Assembly (NCBI GenBank): GCA_022842935.1
Contig: JALHOP010000023.1
Span: 1-47,397 of the forward strand
Direction: 5' to 3'
Source: Myxococcota bacterium
GTDB taxonomy: Bacteria; Myxococcota; XYA12-FULL-58-9; JALHOP01
DNA length: 47,397 bases
Positions 204-33,482 of the stretch are shown piece by piece. Position 1 is the stretch's first letter. Each line of letters starts with the position of its first letter. A model generated the notes under the pieces. The model did no database searches. It saw only the letters and a list, made by a program, of their open reading frames with translations, and was not told the DNA's origin. Position numbers and translations under genes: made by a program.

Positions 204-224
204 GGCCATCTTGGATTGGGCGCG
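204..224. repeat. 21-bp direct repeat copy 1 (GGCCATCTTGGATTGGGCGCG), just downstream of the 286-aa gene
   Basis: Read directly from the sequence. It matches 1135-1155 at 20 of 21 positions. Confidence 0.8.
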
Positions 225-247
225 CTCAACGCCACTGACATCTGCGT

Positions 248-1108
248 TCACGCTTTCTGCCAAAGCAGATGCAGCTCACCGTTGTCGCCTGGACCGACCG
301 CAAAGAACCAAACCTTCTCGAAGCGATGGTCGCGCCCGTCGAGGAGCGCTTTCGCCCGAGCCTGGCCCGTCCCAAACAGCCCGCTCACTCCCATCTCGTA
401 GATCAACAACCACAGCTTGCCGCCGTACCCGCCATAGTGTTTGTCCAGCTTCACTTTTACGGCGTCGGGCAACGCCGCGTCGACGTCGATACCTGTCATG
501 TTGATGCCGCTACTGAACCGCATTCTGAATGGCACCTCGGGCGCCGCGACCCGCGTTACAGTGGGCCAGAGCTGAATCTTGCTGACATCGTCGGTGATCA
601 ACTCTTCAACGCGGCTGTCGCGAGTTGGCTCTAGCTTCGCAAAGTGTCCAATGTGATCTCGCAGCCACGTCTCGAGCAGCTTGAGCACGGCTTGTCCCTC
701 CTTGCTTTTCAAAGCTGGCAGCACGGCGCAGCTCTCCCACAAGTTCAAGTAAAGGCCAGCGAGGCGATCCGCGACGTCGTCGATCGCGTTGAGGAGTGCG
801 GTTGTGAACAGCTCCCGTTGACGTCTGACGATCATCTCGTGCGCCAGTACAGATTCGACGACTTCGACACCTAGTTTGCTGTCATCGAGTTTCCCCTCGA
901 GGTCTGGCCAATCATTGTGCTGATCTTTCTTCTTCAGCTCTGTGACGATTCCCTTGGCTACAAGAGCCTTTTGAAACTTTGCTACTACCCAGGTTTCAAG
1001 CTCGCCTGGGTCCGTGGGAGGCGTTTCGATGACCGTCGCCACCGAGCCGTCTGCCCCGTAGACGACATAACCAGCCTTCTTGCTCGGCTTCTTCGGTCGC
1101 TTTGTCAC
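248..1108 (-). CDS. Hypothetical protein, 286 aa. Last gene of the integrase-linked cassette. No recognisable motif.
   Basis: Long ORF in the lower-GC island, same strand as and 60 nt downstream of the HTH-fusion gene. Lys-rich N-terminus (MTKRPKKPSKK). Flanked by 21-bp direct repeats. Confidence 0.6.
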   Translation of the reverse strand: MTKRPKKPSKKAGYVVYGADGSVATVIETPPTDPGELETWVVAKFQKALVAKGIVTELKKKDQHNDWPDLEGKLDDSKLGVEVVESVLAHEMIVRRQRELFTTALLNAIDDVADRLAGLYLNLWESCAVLPALKSKEGQAVLKLLETWLRDHIGHFAKLEPTRDSRVEELITDDVSKIQLWPTVTRVAAPEVPFRMRFSSGINMTGIDVDAALPDAVKVKLDKHYGGYGGKLWLLIYEMGVSGLFGTGQARAKALLDGRDHRFEKVWFFAVGPGDNGELHLLWQKA

Positions 1109-1134
1109 TCTACACCTCTCAAACGAGCCCCCGA

Positions 1135-1155
1135 GGCCAGCTTGGATTGGGCGCG
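1135..1155. repeat. 21-bp direct repeat copy 2 (GGCCAGCTTGGATTGGGCGCG), in the intergenic region between the 652-aa and 286-aa genes
   Basis: Read directly from the sequence. It pairs with 204-224. Confidence 0.8.
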
Positions 1156-1168
1156 ATCCGCGGGTCTG

Positions 1169-3127: not shown

Positions 3128-3256
3128 TGCGTACCTCCGAGTTTGGAGACGCGATCACATCAAAATACACCCGGCCGTCAAGAAGTAGCGCCGCCGTGAT
3201 GAGGACATTGCCAATGCGGCCGCCCGGAGACGGCCGACTAGACTAGTAGCTTGTCG

Positions 3257-3955
3257 TCAGGGCTGCGGGCGCGGCAGTGCGGCGGGACGTTCTGGGCGTG
3301 CGGGACGAGGGTATTCCCCGTTGAGCACCTTGCGAGTTCGTTCGTCGATCAGCCGTTGAATCTCAGCGAGCTCCGCTTTGAACTTCTCGCTACCCAGGTA
3401 GGAAGCATCCGTCACGACGAGCAAACGCTCGTCGAGCGTTGATGCGGCCGCCATAAAGGCGGAAGCGTTGTAAGTGACCGCGTCGTGAAAGGCTTTGACG
3501 GAAGGAATGTACGCTTTGGACAAATCGTAGTTCTGCTGCAACGCGAGCTGGTCGTAGCTGCTTCTAAGGGTCTCAGTGATCGCGCCTGCGTGTAGGTACT
3601 CTTGCGTGAGCGCAATTGTGGCGGCGTCGAGTAGGTCAGTCGCCGTTTCGTCAGCGAGTGCGGTGTAGAGCAGGTTGAAGAACAACCCTTCCGCGGTCAC
3701 CTCACGCACGCTGGTGGAGAGTTCTAGATCTCGAATCTTGGTGGCGCGCTCTAGGTTGTAGTGAACCTCCCATCTCGCAAGCTCTAGTTTCCGAATGGCG
3801 CGTTCACGAGCGTCTCTGGCGGTCTGCTGATGGGTGCGCTCCCAGACGTCTGCGGCTTGGACCTTGCCGGCCGCATAACCAACCGTCAGACCAACCATGG
3901 TGACCAAAAGTTGCACCACGATAGCGGGCCAGTTTTCCGACAGATATTTCCGCAC
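3257..3955 (-). CDS. Membrane-anchored protein, 232 aa: one N-terminal transmembrane helix followed by a helical soluble domain. First gene of the cassette after the integrase.
   Basis: GTG start. Hydrophobic stretch WPAIVVQLLVTMVGLTVGYAAG at residues 9-30. Pro/Arg-rich C-terminal tail. Same strand as the integrase and the HTH fusion. Confidence 0.5.
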   Translation of the reverse strand: MRKYLSENWPAIVVQLLVTMVGLTVGYAAGKVQAADVWERTHQQTARDARERAIRKLELARWEVHYNLERATKIRDLELSTSVREVTAEGLFFNLLYTALADETATDLLDAATIALTQEYLHAGAITETLRSSYDQLALQQNYDLSKAYIPSVKAFHDAVTYNASAFMAAASTLDERLLVVTDASYLGSEKFKAELAEIQRLIDERTRKVLNGEYPRPARPERPAALPRPQP

Positions 3956-3967
3956 GAGGTTGGTCTT

Positions 3968-3981
3968 CTGGGCGCGCGCCC
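3968..3981. promoter_or_regulatory. Perfect 14-bp palindrome TGGGCGCGCGCCCA, 13 nt upstream of the membrane-protein gene start. Candidate operator.
   Basis: Read from the sequence. Its half-site TTGGGCGCG is shared with the 21-bp direct repeats at 204-224 and 1135-1155. Confidence 0.3.
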
Positions 3982-4040
3982 AATGTGTTTTTGTACGACA
4001 CCGTATCTACCACGCCTTCTTGCCCCCCGCCGCTCCGCCA

Positions 4041-5381
4041 TTACTCCCCCCGCACCCGCCGGAATGCAGCGATCACGGCATTTTGCAGCGTTTTGTAGAA
4101 CTCCGGACGCGTGGCGCGGCTCGCAACGTCTGGCGGTAGCGTGGCGCGGGCAGTTGCCCAGGCTTCCTCTGGCGGTAGGTCAATGCGCAACCAGCCGGGC
4201 CGTTCTTCGACTGCCGCGATGCCTTCCAGCCGGACCGTCGCCTCTTTCGTGATGAGGAGGGCGTGCGCGACCCGAGTCGGGCCGTCGCTCGCGCCGAAGA
4301 CGACGCGCAGACGAGCCGTTGGGTTGGCGGTGGGATGCGCGGAAGCCTGTGCTGCTGAGCCCCCAGGGTCGAGCGCGTCGAGTGGACTCTGCGGGTCGGA
4401 GCGAGTCGTCGTGATGTGTGTGTAGAGACGCGTCGTCTCGAGATTGGCGTGGCCGAGAAAGTCTTGGATGAGACGGAGGTCCGTACCGCCTTCCAGCAAA
4501 TGCGTTGCGAATGAGTGGCGTAGCGAATGGCACGTGACGTTCGCGCGTAGGCCAGCGAGCTCGGCGGCGCGCCGGAACATGCGTTGAGCGGTGCGCGGCG
4601 ACAGGTGGCGGCGGTCGTTGGCGCTCGAGGGGAAAAGGAAACTCTCCGGGGTGGCGGCGGTGCGCAGAGCCAGCAGCCAGCGCTTCCACTTCGTTGGCAT
4701 CAGCGCGCGGCGGTCTTTTGCGCCCTTGCCTCTGAAAACCCGAATGCTGCCCGACTCGAAGTCGAGATCGCGCCAGCGGACGCGGCACATCTCGCCGACG
4801 CGCATGCCGGTCGCGTACAACAGCCCCAGCAGCAGCTTGTCGCGCCGCGCCGGCGCCGCAGCAAGCAAGCGCAGGATCTCGTCGCGGCTCATCACCGTCG
4901 GTAACGACCGCGCGCGTCGCGGTGTGACGAGACCGGTTGTCGCTGTGAGACAGCACATCTTGTCGAACACGGTGCGGAGCATCGAGAGGTTACTTGCGAC
5001 CCATGATGCGCTCGCGCCAGCATCCACGAGGAACTCGAGATACTCGCGCACCAGCTCGCGGTTTGTCTCGGAGGCCGGTGCTTGCGACCAGCGCAGGAAC
5101 TGCATCAGCGCACCCAGGTACGTCTTCACGGAGCGCCGGCTGTAGAAGCGGATGCGCAGCTCGCGCCGGATCTTGCGCACGAACATGCTCGACGAAACAT
5201 TTGCCCGCGTCAGGTCCACGACCGCATGCGATGGGCCGAGCGCGTCATCGAATGGTCGGCGCGGTCCGAACCGGCCGCGCGCGATCCGGTAGACACGACC
5301 ATCGTTATAGGTGTGCGAGTCGATGCGGCGGCCCACGCGACGCTCGAGTGCCAACCCCGTGCCAACGGATGACCAGGCCAA
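4041..5381 (-). mobile_element. Tyrosine site-specific recombinase (phage-integrase / XerD-like family), 446 aa, with N- and C-terminal extensions
   Basis: Catalytic region HSLRHSFATHLLEGGTDLRLIQDFLGHANLETTRLYTHI with the R...HxxR...Y signature. Core-binding-like N-domain (RRSVKTYLGALMQFLRW). About 65 extra residues after the catalytic Tyr. Confidence 0.9.
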
Positions 5382-5891
5382 GAGGCGTTGGCGGGTCTCG
5401 ACAGCTGTCTACTGGCGTGCGTGTAGCAACATGAGACACGAATCTAGCGCGGGACTGCTCGCTCAGGGCTTGTTCGGCGGCAGCGGCTTGAGCTTATCGA
5501 GCTCGGTGGCCATTTCCTCGAGCGCCGCCGCGCGACCGCTTGCGAGCGCGTCGACACCGTCTTCGCGAGCGAGGTTGCGACCGGCCCAGTGAGAGGACCT
5601 CGGCGGCCCGTGACTGACAAAGCGCTTCCATCAACGCAAGCGTCTGACACTGGACAGGGCCTTGTGTTTCCTATGCACCGACACGCTCGTCGAAATCGAC
5701 CGCGAAGCGCTGGCGTCGATCCTCGGATGTCAAAGGCGCTCCCGCCTTCCGCGTCCAGGGACGGGAAGGCCTGTTCGCCGGTTTGCACGAGGGGTGTCGC
5801 GGGCGGCCGAGCACGACAGCTGGGTGACGTTGAAGAAGCGGGACTGAGCCGGTCACCAAAGACCACGTCGATCAGTCCCGCGCTTCAGTTT

Positions 5892-8765
5892 CTATTCAGC
5901 TGCGCTCGCCCACCCGAATGGTAGACATGTATAGGTCACCTCTTGACCAGGCTTCGCGGCGATCGCGCGGATCTCCGCGTCATCGAGCACCGAGCCGCCA
6001 TCGTCGGGCTCGAAGAAGCCATCGGGCTGCAGCTTGTAGGTGCGCGCGCGACCTTCGGTGACGAAGCGTGCGACGAGGTCGCACTCGCGCGCTCCGGCGC
6101 CCAGCACCTTCGATACGAACGGCGTCTTGGCACGCGCGACCAGCAAGTCGATGCGTGGCCCAACGCTCGCGGCGTTGTCAGCGCGCAGGGTGACCTGCTG
6201 ACCAACGACCGGTGCCAAGTCAGTGTCGAAAGCGAGCAAGTATTGCTCGACGTCACGTCGCTGGGGGTCGCCGCCGGTGAAGCCCACCCGGCCGTCGTAC
6301 GTCGGGTTGAAGACGACCTGCTGCAAGAACCGAAACAGCGTATCGGTACTGCCGTCGAAGGCGTATCCGGTACCGCGGACCTGGGCGCCCTGATAGCCGT
6401 TGTCGCCGAGGTTGATGTGGTCGACGGCCGGCGAGCCGAACATGCCAACCTTGTGGACCATGTTCCGCAATTGCGGAATCTTGAAGGTCTGCGGTAGCGC
6501 TTCGAAGCTCGATTGACCGTCGGTCCCGAAGAAGCCCTTCGCAGGGTCGAGGGTGTGGCAACCCTGGCAGGTGAAGCCAAACCCGGCGATGGGTAGACCG
6601 TCGGAGAAATGGCCAAGCCCGGTCGCGATGGGCTCGTTGGGCGAGCAGCGCGCAACGTTTCCAGAGACGCTCGGGGTGCCGGCGCATCCCAGATAAAACT
6701 GGCGGCCACGCTCCTGACTTGCGTTCAAGCCATTGTCCAGCGCGCGCACCGGGTTCGGTGGCATGACGACCGAAAGCGTGAACGCCGTGAATGCTTGCAT
6801 CGCCTCGCGCGGCAGAGGCTCGGCGCGCCCAAGCAAGTCCTGAAAGGCGCCGATGAAGTTGTTGAACGACAGCTCGGCGTCATACGGGGGCGCCTTGCTC
6901 GTGTCCGTGCCGAAAGCGCCCGAAACCCGGTCGCCACGCCAGTGCATGGGACCGTGATTTACTAGACCGCGCAGCGTTTGCGTGGTCAGCGGCCCCTTCA
7001 TGGGATGCAGGGCGTCCACTTCGCCGGTCCCGTTGATGGTGGGTTCTGCGCCGAGCCCGAGGCGCACGGGCACGGGGCTTATCACCACCTCCCCGTCTGG
7101 ATTGCCGAGGTCCCAAGCCAGGTGGTCGTCATCGGCGAATATATGGCAGCTCGCGCACGCAGCTTCGCCGTTCGAAGACAGGCGCCCGTCGTAGAGCGCT
7201 GGTCGGCCGGTGGTCACCACACCCGGCTCAGGGTTTGCGAGGGTGCGATGGCCGCTTTCTTTTGCCGTTGCGAGGTCGATCACGGAGACGCCGTTGTCGA
7301 AGCGCGTCGCGACATACAGGCGTTGTCGTCCGCTATCAAGGACAACACCCGATGGGCCGCCGCCCGAGACGTCCAGGTAGCCGGCACTCGCAACGCGTGG
7401 ATCGAAGCTGTCGTTCTCGAGCGCTGCAGTCGATAGCACTCCGACTTTTGCCGAGCCGAATCCCGCGACGTAGAGCGTCGCGCCATCGGGGCTGACCACG
7501 ACCTCGAGGGGCGTCGACAAGCTGTGGCTGGCAGTGTCCGTGGGCGCCGGCAGGACGTCGTAGGCGATGTGCTTGTTGAGGTGACGCGGGCGCACGCTCG
7601 CCCCGTCGACGACGGTGATGCGCGATTCGGCGAGGTGACCTTGCAGGGTGGTGGCCGCGTACGTGCCCGGCCCTTCGAAGCGCAGGTCGTTGCGCGCCTC
7701 GGTGTTCGAGACATACACCACGCCGGTTACGGGGTTCACGGCGACGTTGAAGAGTGTCGTGCCAAGGCCCGCGTATGTCGCGACCGTCGCGAGATTGCCG
7801 GTGTCGATCGCGAAGAGGTCTTGGTCGGGGAGGTCGAAGGTCGCGGCCGCGGTCCAGTCGCGTCCCAACACGTCCCGCCAGACGCCATCGTTGCCGGTCT
7901 TGAGGATGACCGCGACTGGAGGTGCGGGAACGCCGTCGTGACTGGTCGCAGGGCCGGGCGGAGCACCAGGGACCTCGATGCCCAGCTTGACGCATGTCGA
8001 GGTCACTCCTGGGCCATCGAAACCGGCGCACGGTAGTGTCGGGGGCGTCACCGTGGTGCGGTTCCCCGACTTGAAGACGGCCACGTAGACCCGAGCACCG
8101 TCTGGCGAGACCGCGAGACCACGTGGGGAATCGCCGAAAAACGAAAGGATGCGCAGCGGTGTGCCGCCGAGCGTGTCGCCGAGGTTGTCGCCATCGAAGA
8201 CCCAGACGTCGGCACGCCCGATGCCTGGTGTCGTCAATAGCGGATCGCCGGCGCCGGGCACGTTTGCGATCGACGGGTCGGAGCGATGCTGGCCGCGATG
8301 CGCCGTGCTGATGAATGCGCGCCGACCCTCGGGGCCAGCGAACACAATGTCTTGTGGCTCGTCGCCCACCAGCAAGGTTCGCACCACACGTGGCGGGCTT
8401 GTCGTCGTGTCCACCACGCTGACGCTATCGGAGAGGTGATTGACCACCCACACTTCGCCGTTGGCGCGCGCTGCGACAGCCACGGGCTCGAGGCCGACGT
8501 GCGTCGAGCTCACGAGCGTTAAGCCGTCAGCACTCACGTCGAGCACGTCGAGCGTGGCGTTGGGTGTGTTCGCGACGAAGAGTCGGCTACCGTCAGCGGA
8601 CAGGGCGAGAGGGCGGACAGGGCCGCTTTCGAAGGTAAAGGTGGGTGTAAGTGTGCTCGACGTCGGTGTCACCACTGGCAAGTCGACCGGGTCCTTGTCG
8701 TCCGAACAGGCGCTGGAACAACAAACGAGTGCAATGAGCAGCGGTGTGGTCGTGGATATTTTCAT
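5892..8765 (-). CDS. Secreted lipoprotein: YVTN-type beta-propeller fused to a di-haem cytochrome c peroxidase / MauG-like domain
   Basis: Start at the internal Met (MKISTTTPLLIALVCCSSACS, lipoprotein-like signal). Two CXXCH haem-binding motifs (ACASCH and CQGCH) in the C-terminal half. Repeated LYVA/VSVID propeller blades in the N-terminal half. Confidence 0.7.
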   Translation of the reverse strand: MKISTTTPLLIALVCCSSACSDDKDPVDLPVVTPTSSTLTPTFTFESGPVRPLALSADGSRLFVANTPNATLDVLDVSADGLTLVSSTHVGLEPVAVAARANGEVWVVNHLSDSVSVVDTTTSPPRVVRTLLVGDEPQDIVFAGPEGRRAFISTAHRGQHRSDPSIANVPGAGDPLLTTPGIGRADVWVFDGDNLGDTLGGTPLRILSFFGDSPRGLAVSPDGARVYVAVFKSGNRTTVTPPTLPCAGFDGPGVTSTCVKLGIEVPGAPPGPATSHDGVPAPPVAVILKTGNDGVWRDVLGRDWTAAATFDLPDQDLFAIDTGNLATVATYAGLGTTLFNVAVNPVTGVVYVSNTEARNDLRFEGPGTYAATTLQGHLAESRITVVDGASVRPRHLNKHIAYDVLPAPTDTASHSLSTPLEVVVSPDGATLYVAGFGSAKVGVLSTAALENDSFDPRVASAGYLDVSGGGPSGVVLDSGRQRLYVATRFDNGVSVIDLATAKESGHRTLANPEPGVVTTGRPALYDGRLSSNGEAACASCHIFADDDHLAWDLGNPDGEVVISPVPVRLGLGAEPTINGTGEVDALHPMKGPLTTQTLRGLVNHGPMHWRGDRVSGAFGTDTSKAPPYDAELSFNNFIGAFQDLLGRAEPLPREAMQAFTAFTLSVVMPPNPVRALDNGLNASQERGRQFYLGCAGTPSVSGNVARCSPNEPIATGLGHFSDGLPIAGFGFTCQGCHTLDPAKGFFGTDGQSSFEALPQTFKIPQLRNMVHKVGMFGSPAVDHINLGDNGYQGAQVRGTGYAFDGSTDTLFRFLQQVVFNPTYDGRVGFTGGDPQRRDVEQYLLAFDTDLAPVVGQQVTLRADNAASVGPRIDLLVARAKTPFVSKVLGAGARECDLVARFVTEGRARTYKLQPDGFFEPDDGGSVLDDAEIRAIAAKPGQEVTYTCLPFGWASAAE

Positions 8766-9035
8766 GGGAAGGCCGCCAAGAACTTTCTCATCACTGTTGA
8801 ACACCGGCGAGGCCAATTCGTTGCACCCAATTCGGCTGGGACCGCATGCGAGGCTCTGTCGAAGACTGGCGTGCCACACAGAAGCGCGGATCACGGCGCT
8901 GCACCGAGAAGCGCGGCGCGCCCGAGTCGTGACCGCGGGTCATGGCTCGAGCAAGCGCGCGAGGAAGGCGCGAACGACCCGCGGGACGCCGATAGGGCTT
9001 GCCAGGCCGAGTGCTTCGGGAGACGACCGAGCACC

Positions 9036-9362
9036 ATGAGCGACAACCTCGAATGGTCCCGCACGTTCCGCAGAGTGCTGGCCAGCACGGTGAGCTTTTT
9101 TCTCCTCGCGATCATGGCGATCGTGCTCGGCTTCACCCGCGGTCACGGCTTCGTGCCACCCTCCTTCGAGAGCTCACCGCCCGCCGTGCTGCTCGTCTAC
9201 GGAGTGGGTCTGGGCTTTCCCGCGTTCAGCGCGTTCTGCCTGCTGGTCGCTTGGGTTCGGCTGAGCGAAAAGCGCTACGGCGTGGCGCAACGCCTAGCAC
9301 TCGCGCCGTGGGGTTACTTCGCCGTCTTCATGACGTTGCTAGCGCTGCTACTGCGCCGCTGA
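9036..9362 (+). CDS. Small hydrophobic membrane protein, about 108 aa from the internal ATG. Hypothetical.
   Basis: Three to four hydrophobic helices (FFLLAIMAIVLGF, VLLVYGVGLGFPAFSAFCLLVAW, YFAVFMTLLALLL). GC3-rich codons. Confidence 0.35.
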   Translation: MSDNLEWSRTFRRVLASTVSFFLLAIMAIVLGFTRGHGFVPPSFESSPPAVLLVYGVGLGFPAFSAFCLLVAWVRLSEKRYGVAQRLALAPWGYFAVFMTLLALLLRR

Positions 9363-9375
9363 CAAACAGCCTTGC

Positions 9376-10368
9376 TCAGACGCTTGTCGAAGACGCGCCC
9401 GGCATGTGCGAGTGGGCGTGATAGCTGCTCCGCACCAGCGGACCACTCTCGACGTGCTTGAAGCCGCGCTTCAAACCCTCTTCCTTCAGGAAGCGGAACT
9501 CGTCGGGCGTGTAGAAGCGCGCGATGGGGGCGTGCTTCTTGGTTGGGTTCAGATATTGGCCCAGCGTGAGCACGTCGCATTCGACCTGGCGCAGATCATC
9601 CATCACCAGAAGCAGCTCGTCGATGGTCTCGCCCAAGCCAACGATGACACCTGTCTTCGTGGTCATCGCCACCGGCTTGCCGCTGCCGTTGTCGCCCTTG
9701 CGATAGGCGTCCGCGCGAGCGAGCAGCTCGAGGCAACGCGCATAGATACCCTTTGAGCGCATCGCCTTGTAGAGGCGGGGAACGGTTTCGGTGTTGTGGT
9801 TCAACACCTCGGGCCGCGCGTCGAGAACCTTACGCAGAGAGGCGTGGTCACCCATGAAGTCAGGGATGAGGACTTCGATTTTGGTGCCCGGCTTGCGCTC
9901 ACGAATGGCGTTGATGGTGTCGACGAAGTGATAGGCGCCGTAGTCGGGCAGGTCGTCGCGGTCGACGCTGGTGAGGACCGCGTGGGTGATGCCCAAGCGT
10001 GCCACGGCCTCGGCGACATTCGCGGGCTCTTGTGGATCGGGCAGGTTCTTTGGCCGACCGCTGATGACGCTGCAGTAGCGGCAATTGCGCGTGCAGACCT
10101 CGCCCAAGATCATGAAGGTCGCGGTCTTGTGCTGGCCCCAGCACTCCCAGATGTTCGGACAGCGCGCCTCTTCGCAGACGGTATTGAGCTTCAGGTCGCC
10201 GAGGAGCTTTTTGACGTCGTTGTAGGTCTCGGTGTTCTGGACCTTGATGCGCATCCACGGGGGTCTGCGAGCACCGGCCCCTTCGCGGGCAACAGGAGTG
10301 ACGGGGGTGTCTTTGGTTGCTACGTCGGTCACGCGTGCATTCCTGCTACGTCGGAACGCACATGGCAA
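9376..10368 (-). CDS. lipA: Lipoyl synthase
   Basis: CEEARCPNIWEC and CTRNCRYCSV cysteine clusters (both 4Fe-4S sites). The start may instead be the internal Met at 10254. Confidence 0.9.
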   Translation of the reverse strand: MPCAFRRSRNARVTDVATKDTPVTPVAREGAGARRPPWMRIKVQNTETYNDVKKLLGDLKLNTVCEEARCPNIWECWGQHKTATFMILGEVCTRNCRYCSVISGRPKNLPDPQEPANVAEAVARLGITHAVLTSVDRDDLPDYGAYHFVDTINAIRERKPGTKIEVLIPDFMGDHASLRKVLDARPEVLNHNTETVPRLYKAMRSKGIYARCLELLARADAYRKGDNGSGKPVAMTTKTGVIVGLGETIDELLLVMDDLRQVECDVLTLGQYLNPTKKHAPIARFYTPDEFRFLKEEGLKRGFKHVESGPLVRSSYHAHSHMPGASSTSV

Positions 10369-10663
10369 GGGTTGCCGGCGCGCATGTCGATTCGCCCCGA
10401 AAATCGGTGACGCGAGCCATGTTCAGGCGTAGCAACCTCCATGAGCGCGAGAGCCTTGAAGGCGACCGGGGCGAGCGCGTTGGCCCAGGTCCTCGCCGCG
10501 CGAAACGCCGTTTGCCCATCCGACTATGCCGCTGTTTCAAACAACCCATCGTCCAGGTTCGCGCGGTCCCAGGGTCGCCGCGTGAACATTCGACGAAACG
10601 CTAGAAGCGGAACCGCCATCGCGGCGTAGCTGGGCCGCGGGTTTGGCAGCCGAATGGTGACAG

Positions 10664-11377
10664 CTATCGGGTCAACCCATCCGCGGAGCCACGCGGAATC
10701 GAGCTGCCCTCCATCGTCGTGATGTCGGGGCACAAGTCGCGGTCCAAGACCCGGGCGCAATGCCGCGCGAGGTGCTCTTCCACCTCGGCGAGGGCGACCT
10801 TGCGGTCGAGCAGCGCCTCGAGTGAGGTCACACCGCGCCCATGGATGCCGCACGGGACGATGGTCTCGAAATGCGCGAGGTTCGTGCCGACGTTGAGGGC
10901 GAAGCCGTGCATCGTCGTCCAGCGCGCAACGCGTACCCCGATGGCCGCAACCTTGTCGTTGCCCACCCATACTCCGCGCAGACCCTCGACGCGGGTGGCG
11001 TCAACGCCGTAGTCCGCGCACGTCGCGATGAGCGCCTCTTCGAGGTTCCAGATGAAGCGGCGGATGTCCTTCTCGCCGTCACGGAGCTTCACGATAGGGT
11101 AGCCCACGACTTGGCCGGGCCCGTGATACGTCACGTCGCCGCCGCGCGATGATCGATGCAGCTCGATGCCCATCGCCGCGAGCTCCTGCGGCGTGCGCCT
11201 CAGATTGTCGAAGCCGTCGAGCCCGCTGTTCTTGCCGAGCGTGACCACGGGGTCGTGCTCGAGCAAGAACAACGTGTCAGGCTCGGTGTCCGCTAGAACA
11301 GCCGCATGCCGAGCTTCCTGCAGGGCCAGCATCGGCGCGTAACCGATGCGACCCATCCGGACGGCGTGCAGCTTCAC
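10664..11377 (-). CDS. lipB: Octanoyltransferase (lipoyl(octanoyl) transferase)
   Basis: Typical LipB N-terminus and RGGDVTYHGPGQ.VGYP motif. Directly downstream of the E2 gene. Confidence 0.85.
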   Translation of the reverse strand: MKLHAVRMGRIGYAPMLALQEARHAAVLADTEPDTLFLLEHDPVVTLGKNSGLDGFDNLRRTPQELAAMGIELHRSSRGGDVTYHGPGQVVGYPIVKLRDGEKDIRRFIWNLEEALIATCADYGVDATRVEGLRGVWVGNDKVAAIGVRVARWTTMHGFALNVGTNLAHFETIVPCGIHGRGVTSLEALLDRKVALAEVEEHLARHCARVLDRDLCPDITTMEGSSIPRGSADGLTR

Positions 11378-26030: not shown

Positions 26031-26240
26031 TCCGTTCTAGCGGAGACCTTAGCTTGAGCTCCGACGACAAGACGCGCATCACGCGAGGTTTCGCCGTCGA
26101 GCTCAACGGCAACGCCGGCCCCTTCCGCGCGAACACTTCGACGACTTTTGCGTAAACGCGCCCCGCTACGGTTAGGCCTTCGCGCCGATGACCTGGCCGT
26201 TCACGTGGGACGCGAGGCACGGTTGGAGCGCAGCGCCTGC

Positions 26241-27452
26241 CTACTTGGATGCGTAGGGTCCAGTCGTCACGGGCGGCACGACCTCGGCAGCGGGTGCGGG
26301 CAACTGCTTGGGAGCCTCGGTGGGTGGTGGCAAGGCAGGCCGGTCGCGCTTGAAGGAAGGCAAGTAAGCGACGATGCGCGCGAGGAACGCGGCGAATGCC
26401 GAGGGCTGGGGGGGCGGCGGTGCGGGTGGTGGTGGCGGTTCCGGCGCACAGATGACCTGAAGGACCTGATCTTCGCTGTAGTGAAAGCCGTGGCTCGCGT
26501 CGGTCGAGCGCTCGTAACCAACCAGGGCACCCATGAGGTCGGGGCGCGCGCGCAGCCGCTCCGCGAGGTTCTGCAGGAGGAACGGCAGAAAGACAGCCTT
26601 GTCGATGCTAGCGTTCGGGCCCACGCGATCGGTGAGCCGACTCAAGAGCTGCGAGCTACGACCAATGACCACCACGGCGCCCGCCGGGACGACATTGTGG
26701 TATCCGTCTTTGACACGGCGGCTGTCCGCGATCACGGAACAGTCGCGTTGCAGGCTCGGCGAGGCTTCGCCGAACGGCGAGCCCCCCGCGACCGAGGTCG
26801 TCTGCACGTAACGCTCGACCCTGGCGAGCGCTTCACTGCAGAAGTCGTCGACCACGGCACGCGCTGCCTTCAGCTCGACGGTCGAGCACGGAGTACGAAA
26901 ACCAATGTCACCACGAAGCTTGATGGCCTCGTCCGACGAAGCTGCTTGCGCCGCCAGCGCCTTGCCCACGTAAACGGGGTCACGCAGCGCGACGGCCGCG
27001 ATGCCCCGACCGCGAGCGTGGCGCTCCACCGCAGCGAGCTCGAAACCGTGCTCCTCGAGGTGTTTCTTCAGCGCGACGATCGCCTGGTCGGTGAGCCGGG
27101 TGAGGTCAACGACGTTCTCACCGTGTTCGCCAAAAGCCTCGTTCACGAGCCCGTAGAGATGATTGCCTGCGAACAGACGCACGATCGCCGCGTGCTGGAG
27201 CTCACGCCCGTCGAGGATCGCGCGCTCGGCATAGGGATTTTGTGGGAGCGCTTCGAGCTTGGCGAAGTGGCTGTCGATCTGGGCATCGGCGTCTTTGACG
27301 AGCGCTGCGACGACCCCCTGGGCCTTGGCGAGCATGGCAGGCTCGCTGACCTTTAGACCGACCTCCTCGAAGACGTTGCTCGTATCGAGGGCCGCGACAA
27401 CCGGCTGGCTACGGATGTTGGCAGCGTTTTCCAAAGGTACCGATCTCCCCAA
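26241..27452 (-). CDS. Hypothetical protein with a Pro-rich C-terminus (PPPPPAPPPPQP)
   Basis: Long GC3-biased ORF. No recognised catalytic motif. The long plus-strand ORF at 26148-27356 is judged to be its shadow. Confidence 0.4.
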   Translation of the reverse strand: MGRSVPLENAANIRSQPVVAALDTSNVFEEVGLKVSEPAMLAKAQGVVAALVKDADAQIDSHFAKLEALPQNPYAERAILDGRELQHAAIVRLFAGNHLYGLVNEAFGEHGENVVDLTRLTDQAIVALKKHLEEHGFELAAVERHARGRGIAAVALRDPVYVGKALAAQAASSDEAIKLRGDIGFRTPCSTVELKAARAVVDDFCSEALARVERYVQTTSVAGGSPFGEASPSLQRDCSVIADSRRVKDGYHNVVPAGAVVVIGRSSQLLSRLTDRVGPNASIDKAVFLPFLLQNLAERLRARPDLMGALVGYERSTDASHGFHYSEDQVLQVICAPEPPPPPAPPPPQPSAFAAFLARIVAYLPSFKRDRPALPPPTEAPKQLPAPAAEVVPPVTTGPYASK

Positions 27453-28809: not shown

Positions 28810-29406
28810 TTAGGCTGCGTCCGCAGGGCGCTCTACGTCGGCCGGCGCTTCGACCTGGCCCGGAGACGGAAGGGCTCGGATCTCATTGGCGACGTTGTCG
28901 AAGCGAGCCTTGCCGCCGCTAGCCGTCTCGGCCGCGGCGATACCGGCAACAAGCATCGTCACCGCGCTCCCAATCACACCGGCCAGGAGCTGCATATCCG
29001 CAGGCACGCTCGTAAACACGGCGAGCGCACCGAGGGTCAGCGCAAGCCCCCCAGCCGCGCAACGCAAGATCATGCTCGAAGCCGCTTGCGCACGATCACG
29101 CGCGAGGACACCCGCGCGAATGATCTCGAAACGCTCGTATTCGTGCGGGGTGAGCACCCCGTAGGCATCGGCGGGCGACACACGCGAGCCTCCGTCCACG
29201 ACCTCACTGAAGTCGAGCTTCGCGCGCAGCGTGTCGGAGAGCTTGCGATCGTGGCGGGCGATGTCGGCGACTTGCACCAGCGGACCAGGTTGCGAGGCAA
29301 GCACCTTGGGCTTTGCGGTCACCAACACCAACGGCTGACTTTCTTGCGGGGCCACCAGAGGCATCGCGGGGACGAAGGCACTGGGAGTCTTGACGTCAGC
29401 GGCCAT
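28810..29406 (-). CDS. Hypothetical protein with two C-terminal hydrophobic helices
   Basis: ORF with GC3 bias. GGLALTLGALAVFTSV and LLAGVIGSAVTMLVAGIAAA segments. Confidence 0.35.
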   Translation of the reverse strand: MAADVKTPSAFVPAMPLVAPQESQPLVLVTAKPKVLASQPGPLVQVADIARHDRKLSDTLRAKLDFSEVVDGGSRVSPADAYGVLTPHEYERFEIIRAGVLARDRAQAASSMILRCAAGGLALTLGALAVFTSVPADMQLLAGVIGSAVTMLVAGIAAAETASGGKARFDNVANEIRALPSPGQVEAPADVERPADAA

Positions 29407-29616: not shown

Positions 29617-30477
29617 TCAACGCAGATACTTGTGCACGAGTGGGCCAAGCTCGGCGACGCGCGTTTTCGGGATCGAGGCGCGGTCCGTAACGATGGCGAC
29701 CGCGAGCGCGCTTGCACAGGCGCAGCGCACGTCGAGGCCAGCTATGGTTGGGAGGGCCCTCTCGAGTAGCTTCTGAGCGCGCGCGCTGTTTGCCTTGAGA
29801 ATGGCGATGACCGCGTCGACGGTCACGGGCTCGGCGCTCACGTGCCAACAGTCGTAGTCGGTGACCAGCCCCAAGGTCACATAGTGGAGCTCGGCTTCGC
29901 GGGCGAGCTTCGCCTCAGGCATCGCCGTCATGCCAATGATGTCGAAGCCCATGGCGCGGTAGGCGAACGACTCTGCGCGCGTCGAAAACTGTGGACCATC
30001 GATAGTGACGAGTGTTCCGCCATCGTGGACGTTCAAGCCCAGCGCGCGGGCCTGTGCCACGAAGTGTTTTGCCGCCGTGACGCAGACAGGGTCCGCCATG
30101 CTGACGTGCGCGACCACGCCTTCACCGAAGAACGTGCGGTCCCTGCCTTGTGTGCGGTCGATGTACTGGTCGGGTACCACGAGGTCGCCTGGGTGAATGT
30201 GCTCTTTCAATGATCCGACCGCTGAAACGGACACAAGCCACTCGACCCCGAGCGACTTCATGGCGAAGACGTTAGCGCGGTAAGGCACCTCGGCGGGGGT
30301 CAAGCGATGACCACGTCCGTGGCGCGGCAAGAAGACCAGCTGCGTGTCACCGAGTCGGCCGGTGACCAGGGTGTCGGAAGGAGGCCCATAGGGCGTCACG
30401 ACGTTGACCTCTTGCACGTCGGTGAGCCCTTCCAAGGCGTAGAGCCCGCTCCCGCCGATGATTCCGATGGTGGTCAT
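29617..30477 (-). CDS. mtnP: S-methyl-5'-thioadenosine phosphorylase (PNP/MTAP family)
   Basis: MTTIGIIGGSGLY...VTPYG...RHGRGH...VSAVGSL...LVVPDQYIDRT hallmark MTAP motifs. Confidence 0.8.
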   Translation of the reverse strand: MTTIGIIGGSGLYALEGLTDVQEVNVVTPYGPPSDTLVTGRLGDTQLVFLPRHGRGHRLTPAEVPYRANVFAMKSLGVEWLVSVSAVGSLKEHIHPGDLVVPDQYIDRTQGRDRTFFGEGVVAHVSMADPVCVTAAKHFVAQARALGLNVHDGGTLVTIDGPQFSTRAESFAYRAMGFDIIGMTAMPEAKLAREAELHYVTLGLVTDYDCWHVSAEPVTVDAVIAILKANSARAQKLLERALPTIAGLDVRCACASALAVAIVTDRASIPKTRVAELGPLVHKYLR

Positions 30478-30526
30478 GAAGCCTCTCTTGCTTCAGAGCG
30501 TCCCAAGGGTAAAGCTCAAGCGCGCG

Positions 30527-30862
30527 ATGCACGACCACTACTACGACTCCAAAGACCTCGGCCGCTTCCCCGAAATCGGCAAGGCGGCCCCCGACCTCGC
30601 CAAGAAGTTCTTCGATTGGTACGGCGCTGTCTTCGCAGACGGCGCGCTCAGTGCAAGAGAGAAGTCACTCATCGCGCTCGCGGTGGCGCACACGGTGCAG
30701 TGCCCCTATTGCATCGACGCGTATTCGAACGACTGTCTCGCGAAGGGCTCGGACATCGAGCAGATGACCGAGGCCATCCACGTAGCCGCCGCTATTCGGG
30801 GCGGCTCGTCACTCGTCCACGGCACGCAGATGCGCGCTCACGTCAAAAAGGTTGGGATGTAA
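30527..30862 (+). CDS. AhpD-like (carboxymuconolactone decarboxylase family) peroxidase-like protein. Matches the arsenosugar-biosynthesis-associated peroxidase-like family.
   Basis: CPYCIDAY motif in an ~110-aa AhpD-core-sized protein. It ends directly at the start of a radical-SAM ArsS-like gene. Confidence 0.5.
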   Translation: MHDHYYDSKDLGRFPEIGKAAPDLAKKFFDWYGAVFADGALSAREKSLIALAVAHTVQCPYCIDAYSNDCLAKGSDIEQMTEAIHVAAAIRGGSSLVHGTQMRAHVKKVGM

Positions 30863-31894
30863 ATGCCGTCTTTGCTGTCGCGCAGAGTACCGCTCGCCAG
30901 CAGCTCCGAGCAGCTAAAGACGCTCGAGGGTTTGCCGGTCGCGCGTGAGTTTCACGAGGCATTGAAAGACTCGGCGCTCGTGCCCTTTCGGCCAACCCGT
31001 ATCGAGGTCTTCCAGCTGAACGTCGGAAAGCTCTGTAACCAGACGTGTCGGCACTGTCATGTCGACGCCGGCCCCGACCGGCGCGAGCAAATGTCGCGCG
31101 AGACCATGCAGCTCTGCCTGGACGCGATCGCTAAAACAGACATTGCCACGGTGGACATCACAGGCGGTGCTCCCGAGCTCAACCCCCACTTCGAATGGTT
31201 CGTCGCCGAAGTAAAGAAGCTCGGGCGCCATGTGATCGACAGATGCAACCTGACGATCCTCGAGACGCCCTCCCACGCGCATCTTCCCGCGTTCTTCGCC
31301 GAACACGGGGTCGAGGTGGTTTGCTCCCTGCCCCACTTCCGCGCCACCAACACGGACGCGCAGCGCGGCGAGGGCGTCTTCGACAAGTCGATCAGCGCCC
31401 TCAAAAAGCTCAACGCCGTCGGCTACGGGGTCGGCGCTGGTCTGCGCCTCGTGCTCGTGACGAACCCGGTCGGTGCTTTCCTCCCAGCCGCCCAGGCCTC
31501 ACTCGAGAAGGAATGGAAGCGCGAGCTCGACCGTCTGCACGGCATCAAGTTCGACAGCCTCTTTTGCCTCACCAACATGCCCATCAGTCGCTACCTCGAG
31601 TGGCTCATGGAAACGGGCAACCTCGAGGGCTACATGGAGCGGCTGGTGAATGGCTACAACCCCGCCGCTGCCGCCAACGTCATGTGTCGCAACACCATCT
31701 CCGTGGGCTGGGACGGCAAACTCTACGATTGCGACTTCAACCAGATGCTCGACATGGAGGTCGACGCCACGGTCCCCCGCCATATCCGCGACTTCGACAA
31801 GGCGGCGCTCGAGGCGCGCACCATCGTCACGCACCGACACTGCTTTGGCTGCACTGCCGGGGCCGGCTCGAGCTGCGGCGGCACGACAACCTAG
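30863..31894 (+). CDS. arsS: Radical SAM protein, ArsS-like (arsenosugar biosynthesis radical SAM family)
   Basis: CNQTCRHCHV (CxxxCxxC) radical SAM cluster motif. C-terminal CFGCTAGAGSSCGG motif characteristic of ArsS-type proteins, where one Cys can be Sec in some species. Adjacent to the AhpD-like partner. Confidence 0.55.
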   Translation: MPSLLSRRVPLASSSEQLKTLEGLPVAREFHEALKDSALVPFRPTRIEVFQLNVGKLCNQTCRHCHVDAGPDRREQMSRETMQLCLDAIAKTDIATVDITGGAPELNPHFEWFVAEVKKLGRHVIDRCNLTILETPSHAHLPAFFAEHGVEVVCSLPHFRATNTDAQRGEGVFDKSISALKKLNAVGYGVGAGLRLVLVTNPVGAFLPAAQASLEKEWKRELDRLHGIKFDSLFCLTNMPISRYLEWLMETGNLEGYMERLVNGYNPAAAANVMCRNTISVGWDGKLYDCDFNQMLDMEVDATVPRHIRDFDKAALEARTIVTHRHCFGCTAGAGSSCGGTTT

Positions 31895-31992: not shown

Positions 31993-33291
31993 ATGACGAA
32001 GGTCGGCCATCTCCGAACCCAAGGCACGCGTGTTTCCTCTCCCGGCGAAGCCCCGTCGGCGGCTCCAGGCCTTACGAAGCTTCATCCCAAGCTGCGGCGT
32101 GCGACGCGTACCCCCGACAGCACTGTCCGCGTTGGCGGACCGAAGCTCGTCTCGCGGCTTGAAGCGATCGCCAGGAACAACCCGGACGCCGATCCCATCG
32201 CGCACACCAAGTACCTCTCCTCGGTCGAGCTCCTTGGCCGCGGCAGCCCTTCTGTGGGGTTCGACAAAGCCTCGGCGTACATGGCCGACCTGATGAAGAA
32301 GTACGGCATGGAGGGACCGAATCCGAGTGACCCCTCAGGGAACCCGTACTACCAAACGTTCGACCTCTTTTCGCTTCGTCGCGACGACCACGCGCACATC
32401 GCGCCGCGCAGCTTCGGCCGTGACCTCTTCGAGGGTGGCTTCTATCTCGACCACACTGTCGACGGCGACGAGAAGGACCTCATCAAGCAGCTCTGCCGCA
32501 AACACGGCATCGGCAACTACGACGGTCGCTCGGACATCGCGCCACGCGAAGAGCTCACCGCGGACAGCCTGCGCAAAAACGGCGTCGTGGCCCAAAAGGT
32601 CCAGAACGTCATGGGCGTCATGCGGGGCACCGGTCCGCAGAAGGACGAATACATCGTCCTGATGGCGCATCTCGACCACCTGGGCGGCACGCCGGAGCGG
32701 TTCTTCCCCGGCGCTTCGGACAACGCCTCGGGCTCGGGCACCAACGCGGCCCTCCTGCCGATGCTCGCGGAGCTGCAGAAGTCGGGCAAGCTCAACCGGT
32801 CGGTCCTGGTGATCTGGACAGCGGCTGAAGAGAAGGGCCTGGTCGGCGCCAACTACTTCATCAAGCATCCACTTCCCGGCATCCCTCTGTCCGCGATCAA
32901 GGGCTCCATCAACAACGACATGATCGGGCGCTTCGAAGCGGACCGAATGTCGGTCATCGATACGACCCGCGGTCAGAAGACCTTCCTCACCGACGCGTTT
33001 GCTTACGCGCAGGAGAAACTCGGCGACCGCAAGTTCGCGGTGGTCAACCGCGACATCAACTCGTTCGAGGGACGTCAGGACAACCAGGTGTTCACACGCG
33101 CCGGCATCATCACGCTCTTCAACTTCGAGGGGCTGACGCGTCGAACGGGCGGTGGCAGCGAGAACCCCGACTACCACAAGACGACGGACACCTTCGAACG
33201 GCTCATGGCCGAGAACAAGGGCGAAAAGCTGCTTCGCTTCCGTGATCTGAACCTGCACATGCTCGAATACGCGAGCAACGCCAAGCTGTGA
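31993..33291 (+). CDS. M28-family zinc peptidase (aminopeptidase-like)
   Basis: LMAHLDHLG and GASDNASGSG (GADDNASG-type) metal-binding motifs. EEKGLVGA follows. Confidence 0.6.
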   Translation: MTKVGHLRTQGTRVSSPGEAPSAAPGLTKLHPKLRRATRTPDSTVRVGGPKLVSRLEAIARNNPDADPIAHTKYLSSVELLGRGSPSVGFDKASAYMADLMKKYGMEGPNPSDPSGNPYYQTFDLFSLRRDDHAHIAPRSFGRDLFEGGFYLDHTVDGDEKDLIKQLCRKHGIGNYDGRSDIAPREELTADSLRKNGVVAQKVQNVMGVMRGTGPQKDEYIVLMAHLDHLGGTPERFFPGASDNASGSGTNAALLPMLAELQKSGKLNRSVLVIWTAAEEKGLVGANYFIKHPLPGIPLSAIKGSINNDMIGRFEADRMSVIDTTRGQKTFLTDAFAYAQEKLGDRKFAVVNRDINSFEGRQDNQVFTRAGIITLFNFEGLTRRTGGGSENPDYHKTTDTFERLMAENKGEKLLRFRDLNLHMLEYASNAKL

Positions 33292-33482
33292 GCGATGGCG
33301 AGCGGCTCGATGAGGTCGAGATCAAGCTTGCGTTCACGGAGCGGCGGGTAGAAGAGCTGGACGACGTGGTGCGCAAGCTTTCGGAGACCATCGATCTCCT
33401 GGTAGTCGAAGTGGCCCGCTTGCGGCAGCTCTCGGAACCTCGGGAGTTGCCGCCTGGAAACGTGAAGCCGCCGCACTACTAG
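33288..33482 (+). CDS. slyX: SlyX family protein
   Basis: GTG start overlapping the upstream stop (GTGA). Coiled-coil ERLDEVEIKLAFTERRVEELDDVV aligns with E. coli SlyX. Diagnostic C-terminal PPHY. Confidence 0.6.
   Translation: MSDGERLDEVEIKLAFTERRVEELDDVVRKLSETIDLLVVEVARLRQLSEPRELPPGNVKPPHY

Follow-up and report, generated by a model that had tools for sequence, protein, structure and literature searches.

The locus described here raises the question of whether an MTA phosphorylase (MTAP) encoded back to back with the radical SAM enzyme ArsS could be the enzyme that removes adenine during arsenosugar synthesis. Arsenosugars are the main organoarsenicals of algae and seafood. The pathway leading to them was proposed decades ago and, to our knowledge, ArsM and ArsS are the only enzymes of it that have been identified. 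In Synechocystis sp. PCC 6803, where arsS is co-transcribed with arsM, the two proteins are described as catalyzing the first arsenosugar steps (Xue et al. 2019, Cheng et al. [quoted passage not shown] As far as these accounts extend, ArsS function has been shown experimentally for the Synechocystis enzyme only. Where the removal of adenine from the product is concerned, one review goes no further than to postulate an 'adenosyl nucleosidase', and no named enzyme for this step was found in the texts searched.

The ArsS locus and its AhpD-like partner

All three open reading frames that the earlier note on this DNA had placed between positions 29,617 and 31,894 are found in the window, i.e. the whole stretch of 47,397 nucleotides that was analyzed, and they are arranged as follows.

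29617..30477, minus strand: MTAP paralogue (clade A, ArsS-linked), 286 aa; TIGR01694, PF01048
30478..30526, no strand: divergent intergenic spacer from the MTAP start to the AhpD-like start, 49 nt by direct reading
30527..30862, plus strand: AhpD-like (CMD-fold) CxxC protein, the usual ArsS partner, 111 aa; TIGR04169, PF02627
30863..31894, plus strand: ArsS, radical SAM enzyme, Cys form, 343 aa; TIGR04167, PF04055, PF12345

The MTAP start codon reads CAT on the plus strand (30475-30477) and lies 49 nt from the AhpD-like ATG at 30527, in agreement with the divergent spacing of 50 nt proposed earlier, while the AhpD-like TAA (30860-30862) abuts the ATG of ArsS. The mechanical reading frame of the AhpD-like gene opens at 30458 and its HMM match begins at residue 26 of that frame; we set the start at the ATG at 30527 on the basis of the 111-aa homologues and the beginning of the HMM match. 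Two blocks of the spacer, TCTTGC..(G)AGA and GGTAAAGCTC, are common to the related loci L081, L082, L166 and L167 (surveyed loci carry the prefix L), and in L083 the MTAP and AhpD-like start codons overlap (CATG). A consensus scan detected neither a sigma-70 promoter nor a terminator at the locus; TTGCTT...TAAAGC in the spacer resembles a -35/-10 pair by eye, in a stretch for which that scan was negative. Rfam gave no match and the tRNA search no hit, at the locus or in the window. Horizontal transfer of the triad was also considered and was rejected because there is no anomaly in base composition, the GC content being 0.627 at 30-32 kb versus 0.636 for the window.

The radical SAM protein scores 439.2 bits against the ArsS equivalog model TIGR04167 (cut-off 300, E = 7e-132), whereas the runner-up radical SAM model in NCBIfam reaches only 38.6 bits; the HpnH model is matched weakly, at 29.5 bits. 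Its earlier designation as ArsS, rather than as a member of another subfamily, is therefore confirmed at the level of the HMM. Pfam assigns PF04055 (Radical_SAM, 37.3 bits) and PF12345 (DUF3641, 181.9 bits). Both motifs noticed earlier are present, namely C58-x3-C62-x2-C65 (CNQTCRHC) near the N-terminus and CFGCTAGAGSSCGG at the C-terminus, and C58, C62, C65, C327, C330 and C338 are invariant in an alignment of 15 sequences. These positions are all Cys and there is no in-frame TGA, which identifies the Cys form and not the selenoprotein form. The protein is 55-72% identical to ArsS of surveyed loci from many phyla (58% to that of the cyanobacterium L063), and its identity to homologues of its own lineage reaches 91%. 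By equivalog-level homology to the Synechocystis orthologue, it would be expected to adenosylate dimethylarsenite with the 5'-deoxyadenosyl group of SAM.

The AhpD-like protein scores 177.3 bits against TIGR04169 (cut-off 120, E = 7e-53), a family curated under the name 'arsenosugar biosynthesis-associated peroxidase-like protein'. It matches PF02627 (CMD), carries a CPYC motif, and weakly matches the AhpD portion of NF041537, a family of selenoproteins in which ArsM and AhpD are fused. Our surveys covered 80 GTDB ArsS loci, 160 survey loci, and 165 loci in all; the ArsS scan of metagenome contigs, with a best match of 72% identity, constitutes a second unbiased survey and not a sample of the clade of the window. 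Unbiased clustering of open reading frames ranks the AhpD-like family first among ArsS neighbours, and a co-directional homologue immediately precedes ArsS in 63 of the 80 GTDB loci and in about 130 of the 165 loci overall, so that the pairing, already taken as characteristic from the letters alone, is indeed the dominant context of ArsS. We assign the ArsS and AhpD-like identities of the gene pair with high confidence. The pair itself is ordinary: it occurs in many phyla, has already been named by NCBI, and is annotated automatically. The survey met this core frequently, among soil Myxococcota, Acidobacteriota, Nitrospirota, Bacteroidota and further phyla. Many lineages other than cyanobacteria possess ArsS, and its occurrence in a non-cyanobacterial genome, singled out in the earlier note, is not noteworthy; the capacity to form adenosyl-arsenic compounds would accordingly extend far beyond phototrophs.

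Within the 47 kb of the window, neither Pfam analysis of the approximately 31 long open reading frames nor tblastn revealed arsM, TIGR04282, TIGR04283, arsR, arsC or PiT. No methyltransferase is present among these frames, and tblastn with an ArsM-like query was also negative. Of a complete arsenosugar cluster, the window thus lacks ArsM as well as TIGR04282/TIGR04283. Since there is no arsM and no arsenosugar glycosyltransferase in the window, the arsenosugar end product implied by the pathway proposed earlier is not supported here. Across the 165 ArsS loci, an ArsM-like neighbour occurs in 33, TIGR04282 in 35 and TIGR04283 in 23, the latter two mainly in loci of the Bacteroidota type; ArsR, ArsC or PiT accompany ArsS in others. 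The AhpD-like gene is the sole neighbour, with no arsenic gene near, in 79 of the 160 survey loci. Lipoyl synthase, another radical SAM enzyme, is also encoded in the window.

Origin and active site of the ArsS-linked MTAP

The MTAP exceeds the TIGR01694 cut-off (302.8 versus 274.85 bits, E = 1.5e-90) and matches PF01048 (PNP_UDP_1), while it stays below the cut-offs of the PRK models built for individual clades, among them NF006492 and NF005657. The divergent MTAP/AhpD-like/ArsS triad recurs in L081, L082, L083/L084, L166 and L167/L168, with ArsS identities of 77-90% and MTAP identities of 73-88%. The outer flanks of these triads are TPR and M28 genes in L082 and L166, fliMOPQR in L083, DPBB, epimerase and AraC genes in L081, and, in L167, radical SAM, AsnS-like and GT28 genes together with DUF7660 and a methylase. 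No MTAP is found beside ArsS in any of the 80 GTDB loci or in the other Myxococcota ArsS loci (L003-L007, L009 and L085), and among the surveyed loci the MTAP-type linkage is restricted to one narrow lineage.

Clades A and B of the MTAPs are each monophyletic in 200 of 200 NJ bootstraps and are sisters in 188 of 200. Every clade-A MTAP with a readable context adjoins AhpD-like/ArsS. In clade B, as in two outgroup MTAPs, a homologous hypothetical gene lies directly upstream of MTAP; L173 additionally has the sigma54 activator common to clade B, and L175 ends before that point. Because clade B occupies the outgroup position, clade A appears to be the copy that has moved. Both paralogues are present in the MAG GCA_039809465.1, a bin and not a closed genome, in which the ArsS-linked MTAP (P0124) is 66% identical to a second MTAP of clade B on another contig (P0130), which occupies the ancestral position, and likewise in the ENA assembly ERZ2854929. 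On the sequence evidence, we conclude that the ArsS-linked MTAP is a relocated duplicate, with MAG bins as the basis for the two paralogues.

Compared with human MTAP (1CB0), the residues for phosphate, for adenine (D220/D222), and of the hydrophobic 5'-pocket are canonical. The changes specific to clade A are F38Y, S70A, L152F, E173D and A216G (human numbering), none of which is at a known substrate contact when all pocket columns are checked; two pocket positions, A94S and L279Q, are altered in clade B but not in clade A. A shift in specificity of the clade-A enzyme, as read from sequence, was rejected for lack of any change at known contacts, and the canonical pocket consequently provides no sequence argument for a new specificity.

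A proposed route for adenine removal and its alternatives

We propose, with a probability of roughly 55%, that the two-gene ArsS module and its dedicated MTAP paralogue carry out arsenic adenosylation followed by adenine removal. Dimethylarsenite would be provided by an ArsM encoded elsewhere or by the environment, and the AhpD-like CxxC protein would probably serve as a thiol-disulfide reductant that keeps the arsenical trivalent or makes it so. ArsS would then cleave SAM and combine the 5'-deoxyadenosyl radical with As(III) to form DDMAA, from which MTAP and phosphate would yield adenine and 5-deoxy-5-dimethylarsinoyl-ribose-1-phosphate. The last of these steps is suggested by the gene linkage, by the paralogy and by the analogy with HpnH/HpnG. 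A functional link between this MTAP and ArsS seems probable to us, and that the substrate of the MTAP is DDMAA, judged from sequence and analogy, we hold to be an evenly balanced proposition. The earlier note had already proposed adenine removal from the ArsS product by an MTAP-family enzyme; the idea has gained comparative support from the retained triad, the relocated paralogue and a Bacteroidota PNP, and it stays a proposal as to the reaction itself. Its description as a three-step module is overstated, the role of the AhpD-like protein being a putative one.

The Bacteroidota evidence is as follows. A PunA-type PNP is located inside Bacteroidota-type AhpD-ArsS-(TIGR04282-TIGR04283-ArsM) operons at 8 of the 160 survey loci, in at least five gene orders, versus about 0.5 loci expected by chance adjacency of a PNP-family gene, a rough estimate that takes 1-3 such genes per several thousand and approximately 8 genes inspected per locus. 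All eight operon PNPs have Asp at the position of N243 in human PNP and Ile at that of H257 (compare D220 and V233 in MTAP), implying that the base is recognized in the adenine manner and that the 5' pocket is hydrophobic. Any PNP-family neighbour is present at only about 5% of the surveyed ArsS loci, and most ArsS organisms would therefore need a housekeeping enzyme.

In the Bacteroidota, the CofC-like TIGR04282 protein could activate arsenoribose-1-phosphate with a nucleotide, and the GT2 protein TIGR04283 could transfer it. We tentatively suggest, at somewhat less than even odds, that adenine removal in arsenosugar synthesis is phosphorolytic and that phosphorylases were recruited for it twice independently, once as an MTAP duplicate and once as the MTAP-like PNP of Bacteroidota, with the product activated by TIGR04282 and transferred by TIGR04283 where these are present. 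The ArsS-linked MTAP and the operon PNP are two clonable candidates for the step. With either of them the intermediate is predicted to be a phosphorylated arsenoribose, which would explain the CofC-like and GT2 genes that come next in the longer operons. For lineages without TIGR04282/TIGR04283, it is pure speculation, and very improbable, that arsenoribose-1-phosphate might enter a route resembling MTA salvage or the DHAP shunt and end in dimethylarsinoyl-acetaldehyde, -ethanol and -acetate. These two-carbon arsenicals are proposed precursors of arsenobetaine.

Alternatively, the MTAP could be a methionine-salvage enzyme or a redundant paralogue, its adjacency to ArsS being synteny that was inherited within a young lineage and is devoid of functional significance. 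The canonical active site is compatible with such a role, and so are the divergent orientation, in which MTAP is not co-transcribed with the pair, and the confinement of the linkage to close relatives (ArsS identity at least 77%), as opposed to the other Myxococcota and the 80 GTDB loci. Mere inheritance, however, would hardly account for a triad that has persisted while both outer flanks were reshuffled at least four times, or for a duplicate that came to lie beside ArsS with the ancestral position still filled. A different PNP-family enzyme in Bacteroidota ArsS operons of several gene orders, at the above excess over the roughly estimated chance level, likewise argues against it, and we consider this explanation unlikely.

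The MTAP might also aid ArsS indirectly, by clearing inhibitory by-products of SAM, either MTA or the 5'-deoxyadenosine released by uncoupled cleavage. MTAPs accept 5'-deoxyadenosine, which inhibits radical SAM enzymes, and the canonical pocket would suit this task. Nevertheless, ArsS uses the 5'-deoxyadenosyl radical as a substrate, hence no stoichiometric 5'-deoxyadenosine is released. With many radical SAM enzymes per genome, including the lipoyl synthase of the window, and a second MTAP in the lineage, a dedicated copy at this very place would be poorly explained, and the Bacteroidota PNP has ArsS on one side and the glycosyltransferase-like genes on the other, the place expected of a pathway step. 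Clearance of by-products in place of the arsenical product is thus improbable.

Finally, it is quite improbable that the pair of this soil myxobacterium acts on another metalloid or nucleophile under an 'arsenosugar' label transferred from cyanobacteria, a view in keeping with the window's lack of arsM or any other ars gene, the many loci with an AhpD-like neighbour only, and the single experimentally characterized enzyme, but opposed by an ArsS above the equivalog cut-off, the very strong conservation of its family between phyla, in which every Cys motif is invariant, the ArsM-like, ArsR, ArsC or PiT neighbours at other loci, and the curated family of ArsM-AhpD fusions (NF041537).

Comparison with known systems

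The preferred reading, adenosylation by ArsS followed by adenine removal by the MTAP, can be compared with four known systems. The window MTAP shares its fold and its catalytic, adenine and 5'-pocket residues with the housekeeping MTAP (MtnP), as represented by the human enzyme 1CB0 and the metagenomic RsfP 4GLF; it differs as a lineage-specific extra copy that has moved beside ArsS, while a copy at the ancestral position persists. Synechocystis ArsS belongs to the same TIGR04167 equivalog and has the same Cys motifs as the window ArsS, and the same chemistry is expected by homology. Unlike in Synechocystis, no arsM is present in 47 kb, ArsS is paired with an AhpD-like protein and faces an MTAP paralogue, and the DNA belongs to an uncultured bacterium of the Myxococcota.

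The Bacteroidota operons (TIGR04169, TIGR04167, TIGR04282, TIGR04283 and the NF038099 ArsM) contain the AhpD-like and ArsS core in the order and on the strand seen in the window, and in both cases a phosphorylase of the trimeric PNP/MTAP superfamily is attached to it. The Bacteroidota enzyme is a PunA-type PNP, 25% identical to the window MTAP, co-directional and embedded, and followed by TIGR04282 and TIGR04283, whereas the window has a true MTAP in divergent orientation and no glycosyltransferase-like genes.

A precedent for the proposed chemistry is provided by the hopanoid side chain, in which radical SAM adenosylation by HpnH is followed by adenine removal by HpnG, a PNP homologue (PMC13459092). 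HpnG knockouts accumulate adenosylhopane, and the product of HpnG phosphorolysis was itself not observed (PMC13459092). The acceptor of HpnH is the C=C bond of hopene while that of ArsS is arsenic, and HpnG belongs to a subfamily different from MTAP; in HpnH/HpnG and in the proposed ArsS/MTAP pair alike, radical SAM adenosylation would be followed by adenine removal by a PNP_UDP_1-family enzyme, leaving a ribosyl derivative.

The ArsS, AhpD-like and MTAP genes and their surroundings

Three genes, all scoring above the NCBIfam curated cut-offs used for family assignment, make up the locus:

29617-30477, minus strand: methylthioadenosine phosphorylase (MTAP); TIGR01694, 302.8 bits against a cut-off of 274.85
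30527-30862, plus strand: AhpD-like protein; TIGR04169, 177.3 bits against 120
30863-31894, plus strand: radical SAM enzyme ArsS, 343 aa; TIGR04167, 439.2 bits against 300

The ORF calls match exactly the positions given in an earlier note, which had read the three products as ArsS, its AhpD-like partner and an MTAP-family phosphorylase; the TIGRFAM/NCBIfam search it had proposed bears out these assignments, and the Pfam matches agree (Radical_SAM and DUF3641 in ArsS, CMD in the AhpD-like protein, PNP_UDP_1 in MTAP). TIGR04169 is titled 'arsenosugar biosynthesis-associated peroxidase-like protein'. ArsS carries C58-x3-C62-x2-C65 and a C-terminal CFGCTAGAGSSCGG motif, and none of these six cysteines varies when the protein is aligned with 14 homologues. 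The AhpD-like stop codon (TAA, 30860-30862) is directly followed by the ArsS ATG. Since its homologues have 111 aa and the HMM aligns only from ORF residue 26 onwards, the AhpD-like protein most likely starts at ATG 30527, giving 111 aa and placing the MTAP start codon 49 nt away.

The window is ordinary chromosomal DNA of about 64% GC, with uncultured Myxococcota as its closest named relatives; its genes include gyrA, lipA/lipB, a 2-oxoacid dehydrogenase E2 subunit, typA/bipA, an M28 peptidase, a glutathione peroxidase and an MscS-type channel. No methyltransferase is found among its approximately 31 long ORFs, and tblastn with proteins from other ArsS loci gave no match within it for ArsM-like, TIGR04282, TIGR04283, ArsR, ArsC or PiT. 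The tRNA and Rfam searches of the locus and window gave no match, and a consensus scan returned no promoter or terminator.

The left end (1-5400) has a GC content of 0.589 against about 0.64, with a phage-type integrase (4041-5381, minus strand) and a 652-aa HTH protein (1169-3127, minus strand), and could be the border of an integrated element. A 198-aa ORF (28810-29406, minus strand) with no Pfam or NCBIfam match separates the TPR gene from MTAP; it looks like a genome-specific insertion because the TPR gene directly abuts MTAP in two related loci, L082 and L166. Two ORFs, each about 400 aa long, occupy nearly the same stretch (26148-27452) on opposite strands. The minus-strand ORF, which has no Pfam match, is probably the real one, since a 371-aa gene called on the minus strand of L082, flanked there by Polyketide_cyc2 and TPR genes, may correspond to it. 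A SlyX gene is called in L166 and L081 where the window has a 64-aa ORF (33288-33482, plus strand) between the M28 peptidase and glutathione peroxidase genes.

Distribution of the ArsS/AhpD-like pair and of the divergent triad

A protein search with ArsS gave at least 8000 clusters, many sources already using that name, and a pattern scan in which a single genome represented each GTDB species gave at least 600 matches. Among the matches listed, 80 GTDB loci were retained, with ArsS 55-71% identical to that of the window, from Acidobacteriota, Myxococcota, Nitrospirota, Bacteroidota, Planctomycetota, Gemmatimonadota, Cyanobacteria and others; the non-cyanobacterial setting stressed in the earlier note is thus not unusual. 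In a pooled survey of 165 loci (these 80, 80 from metagenomes and five from relatives), about 130 have an AhpD-like gene no more than 4 kb from ArsS, typically on the same strand and directly upstream. Unlabelled clustering of every ORF in this 4-kb range around ArsS ranks this family first, and NCBIfam confirmed the identities of representative neighbour proteins.

Neighbour families in the clustering (number of loci)
AhpD-like: 121
ArsM-like: 32
TIGR04282: 31
TIGR04283: 18
ArsR-like: 12
ABC ATPase: 11
PiT-like: 11
PNP/MTAP: 11

The pair is thus very ordinary, a module already known and annotated automatically. Nitrospira-type loci (L011, L018, L030, L032, L035, L036, L046, L073 and similar) have ArsS without the AhpD-like partner, in an ars-operon-like context of ArsM-like, ArsR-like, LMW-PTP-type ArsC and PiT-like genes.

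The MTAP is the sole part of the locus that goes beyond annotation. A window-type MTAP adjoins ArsS in none of the 80 GTDB loci and in none of the other Myxococcota loci (L003-L007, L009, L085); the divergent triad recurs in the window's own lineage.

Triad loci, with identity to the window's proteins and outer flanks
L081: ArsS 88%; DPBB, epimerase and AraC genes
L082: ArsS 90%, MTAP 84%; TPR gene and M28 peptidase
L083/L084: ArsS 77%, MTAP 73%; fliMOPQR (L083)
L166 (GCA_041288095.1): MTAP 88%; TPR gene and M28 peptidase
L167/L168 (GCA_039809465.1, GCA_034286235.1): MTAP 83%; in L167, radical SAM, AsnS-like and GT28 genes on one side, DUF7660 and methylase on the other

Since the outer flanks vary, the triad is the conserved unit. 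Around 5655-5662 of L083 no intergenic DNA separates MTAP from the AhpD-like gene: their start codons share bases head to head (CATG), so each promoter must sit within the opposite gene. The gene caller had cut the L083 MTAP short, to 260 aa; the full ORF begins MTTIGIIGGSG. In L167, past a 124-aa minus-strand ORF adjoining MTAP, a co-directional cluster (6388-10858) of radical SAM, Asn-synthase-like, GT28/UDPGT-type glycosyltransferase and two further genes is seen only in this MAG lineage.

Origin and active site of the ArsS-linked phosphorylases

The MAG GCA_039809465.1 carries, besides its ArsS-linked MTAP (P0124), a second MTAP (P0130) on a different contig, which shares 66% identity with P0124 and 68% with the MTAP of the window. 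Its context (sigma54-activator / hypothetical / MTAP / Ser-Thr-kinase) is repeated in L169 and L171/L172, and L169 shares one ENA assembly, with similar contig coverage, with L082. An NJ tree was built from 121 MTAPs, and a subset of 47 sequences was bootstrapped 200 times; the ArsS-linked proteins (clade A) and the second paralogues (clade B) are each monophyletic in 200/200 and sisters in 188/200, approximately equidistant from outgroup MTAPs. A homologue of the clade B upstream hypothetical lies directly upstream of the outgroup MTAPs P0153 and P0147, which implies that clade B keeps the ancestral position; in the outgroup locus L173 it is 34% identical to that of clade B (E = 1e-90) and is preceded by a 69% identical sigma54 activator, and L175 ends before the activator position. 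The clade A MTAP is thus a duplicate relocated beside the AhpD-like/ArsS pair.

Active-site residues were numbered on human MTAP, checked against 1CB0. Clade A is canonical at all phosphate, adenine and 5'-pocket positions (T18, Ser in clade A; R60, H61, H65, P69, F177, M196, T197, D220, D222, V233, V236), and none of its specific changes (F38Y, S70A, L152F, E173D, A216G) falls at a known substrate contact. The sequence is therefore no argument for a new specificity. MTAPs in general accept bulky 5' substituents, and the clade A sequence is compatible with such an enzyme. In clade B (L169, L170, L171; P0127-P0135), Ser replaces A94 in 9/9, with Ala in all 104 other MTAPs, and Gln occupies the L279 column in 9/9, where the alignment is less secure close to the C-terminus; the altered pocket positions are therefore in the copy kept in place.

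A PunA-type PNP (NF006054, 336 bits; 25% identical to the window's MTAP) lies inside the ArsS operon in 8/160 survey loci, all Bacteroidota-type, in at least five gene orders.

Gene orders of PNP-containing ArsS operons
L076, L080, L132, L134: AhpD - ArsS - PNP - TIGR04282 - TIGR04283
L045: AhpD - ArsS - TIGR04282 - TIGR04283 - ArsM - PNP
L157: TIGR04282 - PNP - TIGR04283 - AhpD - ArsS - ArsM
L057: PNP - AhpD - ArsS
L162: another order

Chance adjacency was roughly estimated at 0.5 per 160 loci, against the 8 observed, which are phylogenetically clustered. Aligned to human PNP (checked against 1PF7), all eight carry Asp at the N243 position and Ile at that of H257, equivalent to MTAP D220 and V233. 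This likeness on a PNP scaffold points to base recognition of the adenine type and to a 5' pocket that is hydrophobic; the nearest solved structures, 4M1E and 4LNA, carry the same residues, so that they are a subfamily trait rather than unique to ArsS-linked PNPs. This PNP recruitment is independent of the MTAP linkage. Neutral synteny, in which MTAP would stand beside ArsS with no functional tie, is unlikely given the outer-flank turnover, the relocation of the duplicate and this independent case.

Proposed adenine removal in arsenosugar synthesis

[quoted passage not shown]

From the observed gene identities, linkage, paralogy and residue patterns, we infer the catalytic steps in this organism as follows. 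ArsS would form DDMAA as its cyanobacterial counterpart does, and the MTAP paralogue would convert DDMAA and phosphate to adenine and 5-deoxy-5-dimethylarsinoyl-ribose-1-phosphate. For Bacteroidota, activation of the arsenoribose sugar would fall to the CofC-like TIGR04282 protein and its transfer to the GT2 TIGR04283 protein. The AhpD-like protein, through its CxxC pair, probably provides arsenic in the trivalent state or keeps it there, a thiol-redox role suggested by the curated ArsM-AhpD fusion families (NF041537).

MTAP might instead clear the by-products 5'-deoxyadenosine or MTA; however, ArsS consumes the adenosyl radical stoichiometrically and the Bacteroidota PNP is placed mid-operon, which makes this quite unlikely. 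That the window's ArsS homologue acts on a non-arsenic substrate is very improbable, considering the extreme conservation of the family and the frequent ArsM, ArsR and ArsC neighbours at other loci.

Adenine removal by the phosphorylase, as the earlier note proposed, thus gains comparative evidence from the retained triad, the relocated duplicate and the Bacteroidota PNPs, but is unproven. The MTAP-linked triad is a new form of the arsenosugar cluster, and its phosphorylase is a concrete candidate enzyme for this unassigned step. A precedent for adenosylation followed by adenine removal by a PNP homologue exists in hopanoid synthesis, where the radical SAM enzyme HpnH adenosylates hopene and HpnG removes the adenine, knockouts accumulating adenosylhopane (PMC13459092). 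Because of this precedent, and since the searchable texts name no enzyme, we adopt the model in which MTAP would remove the adenine of DDMAA.
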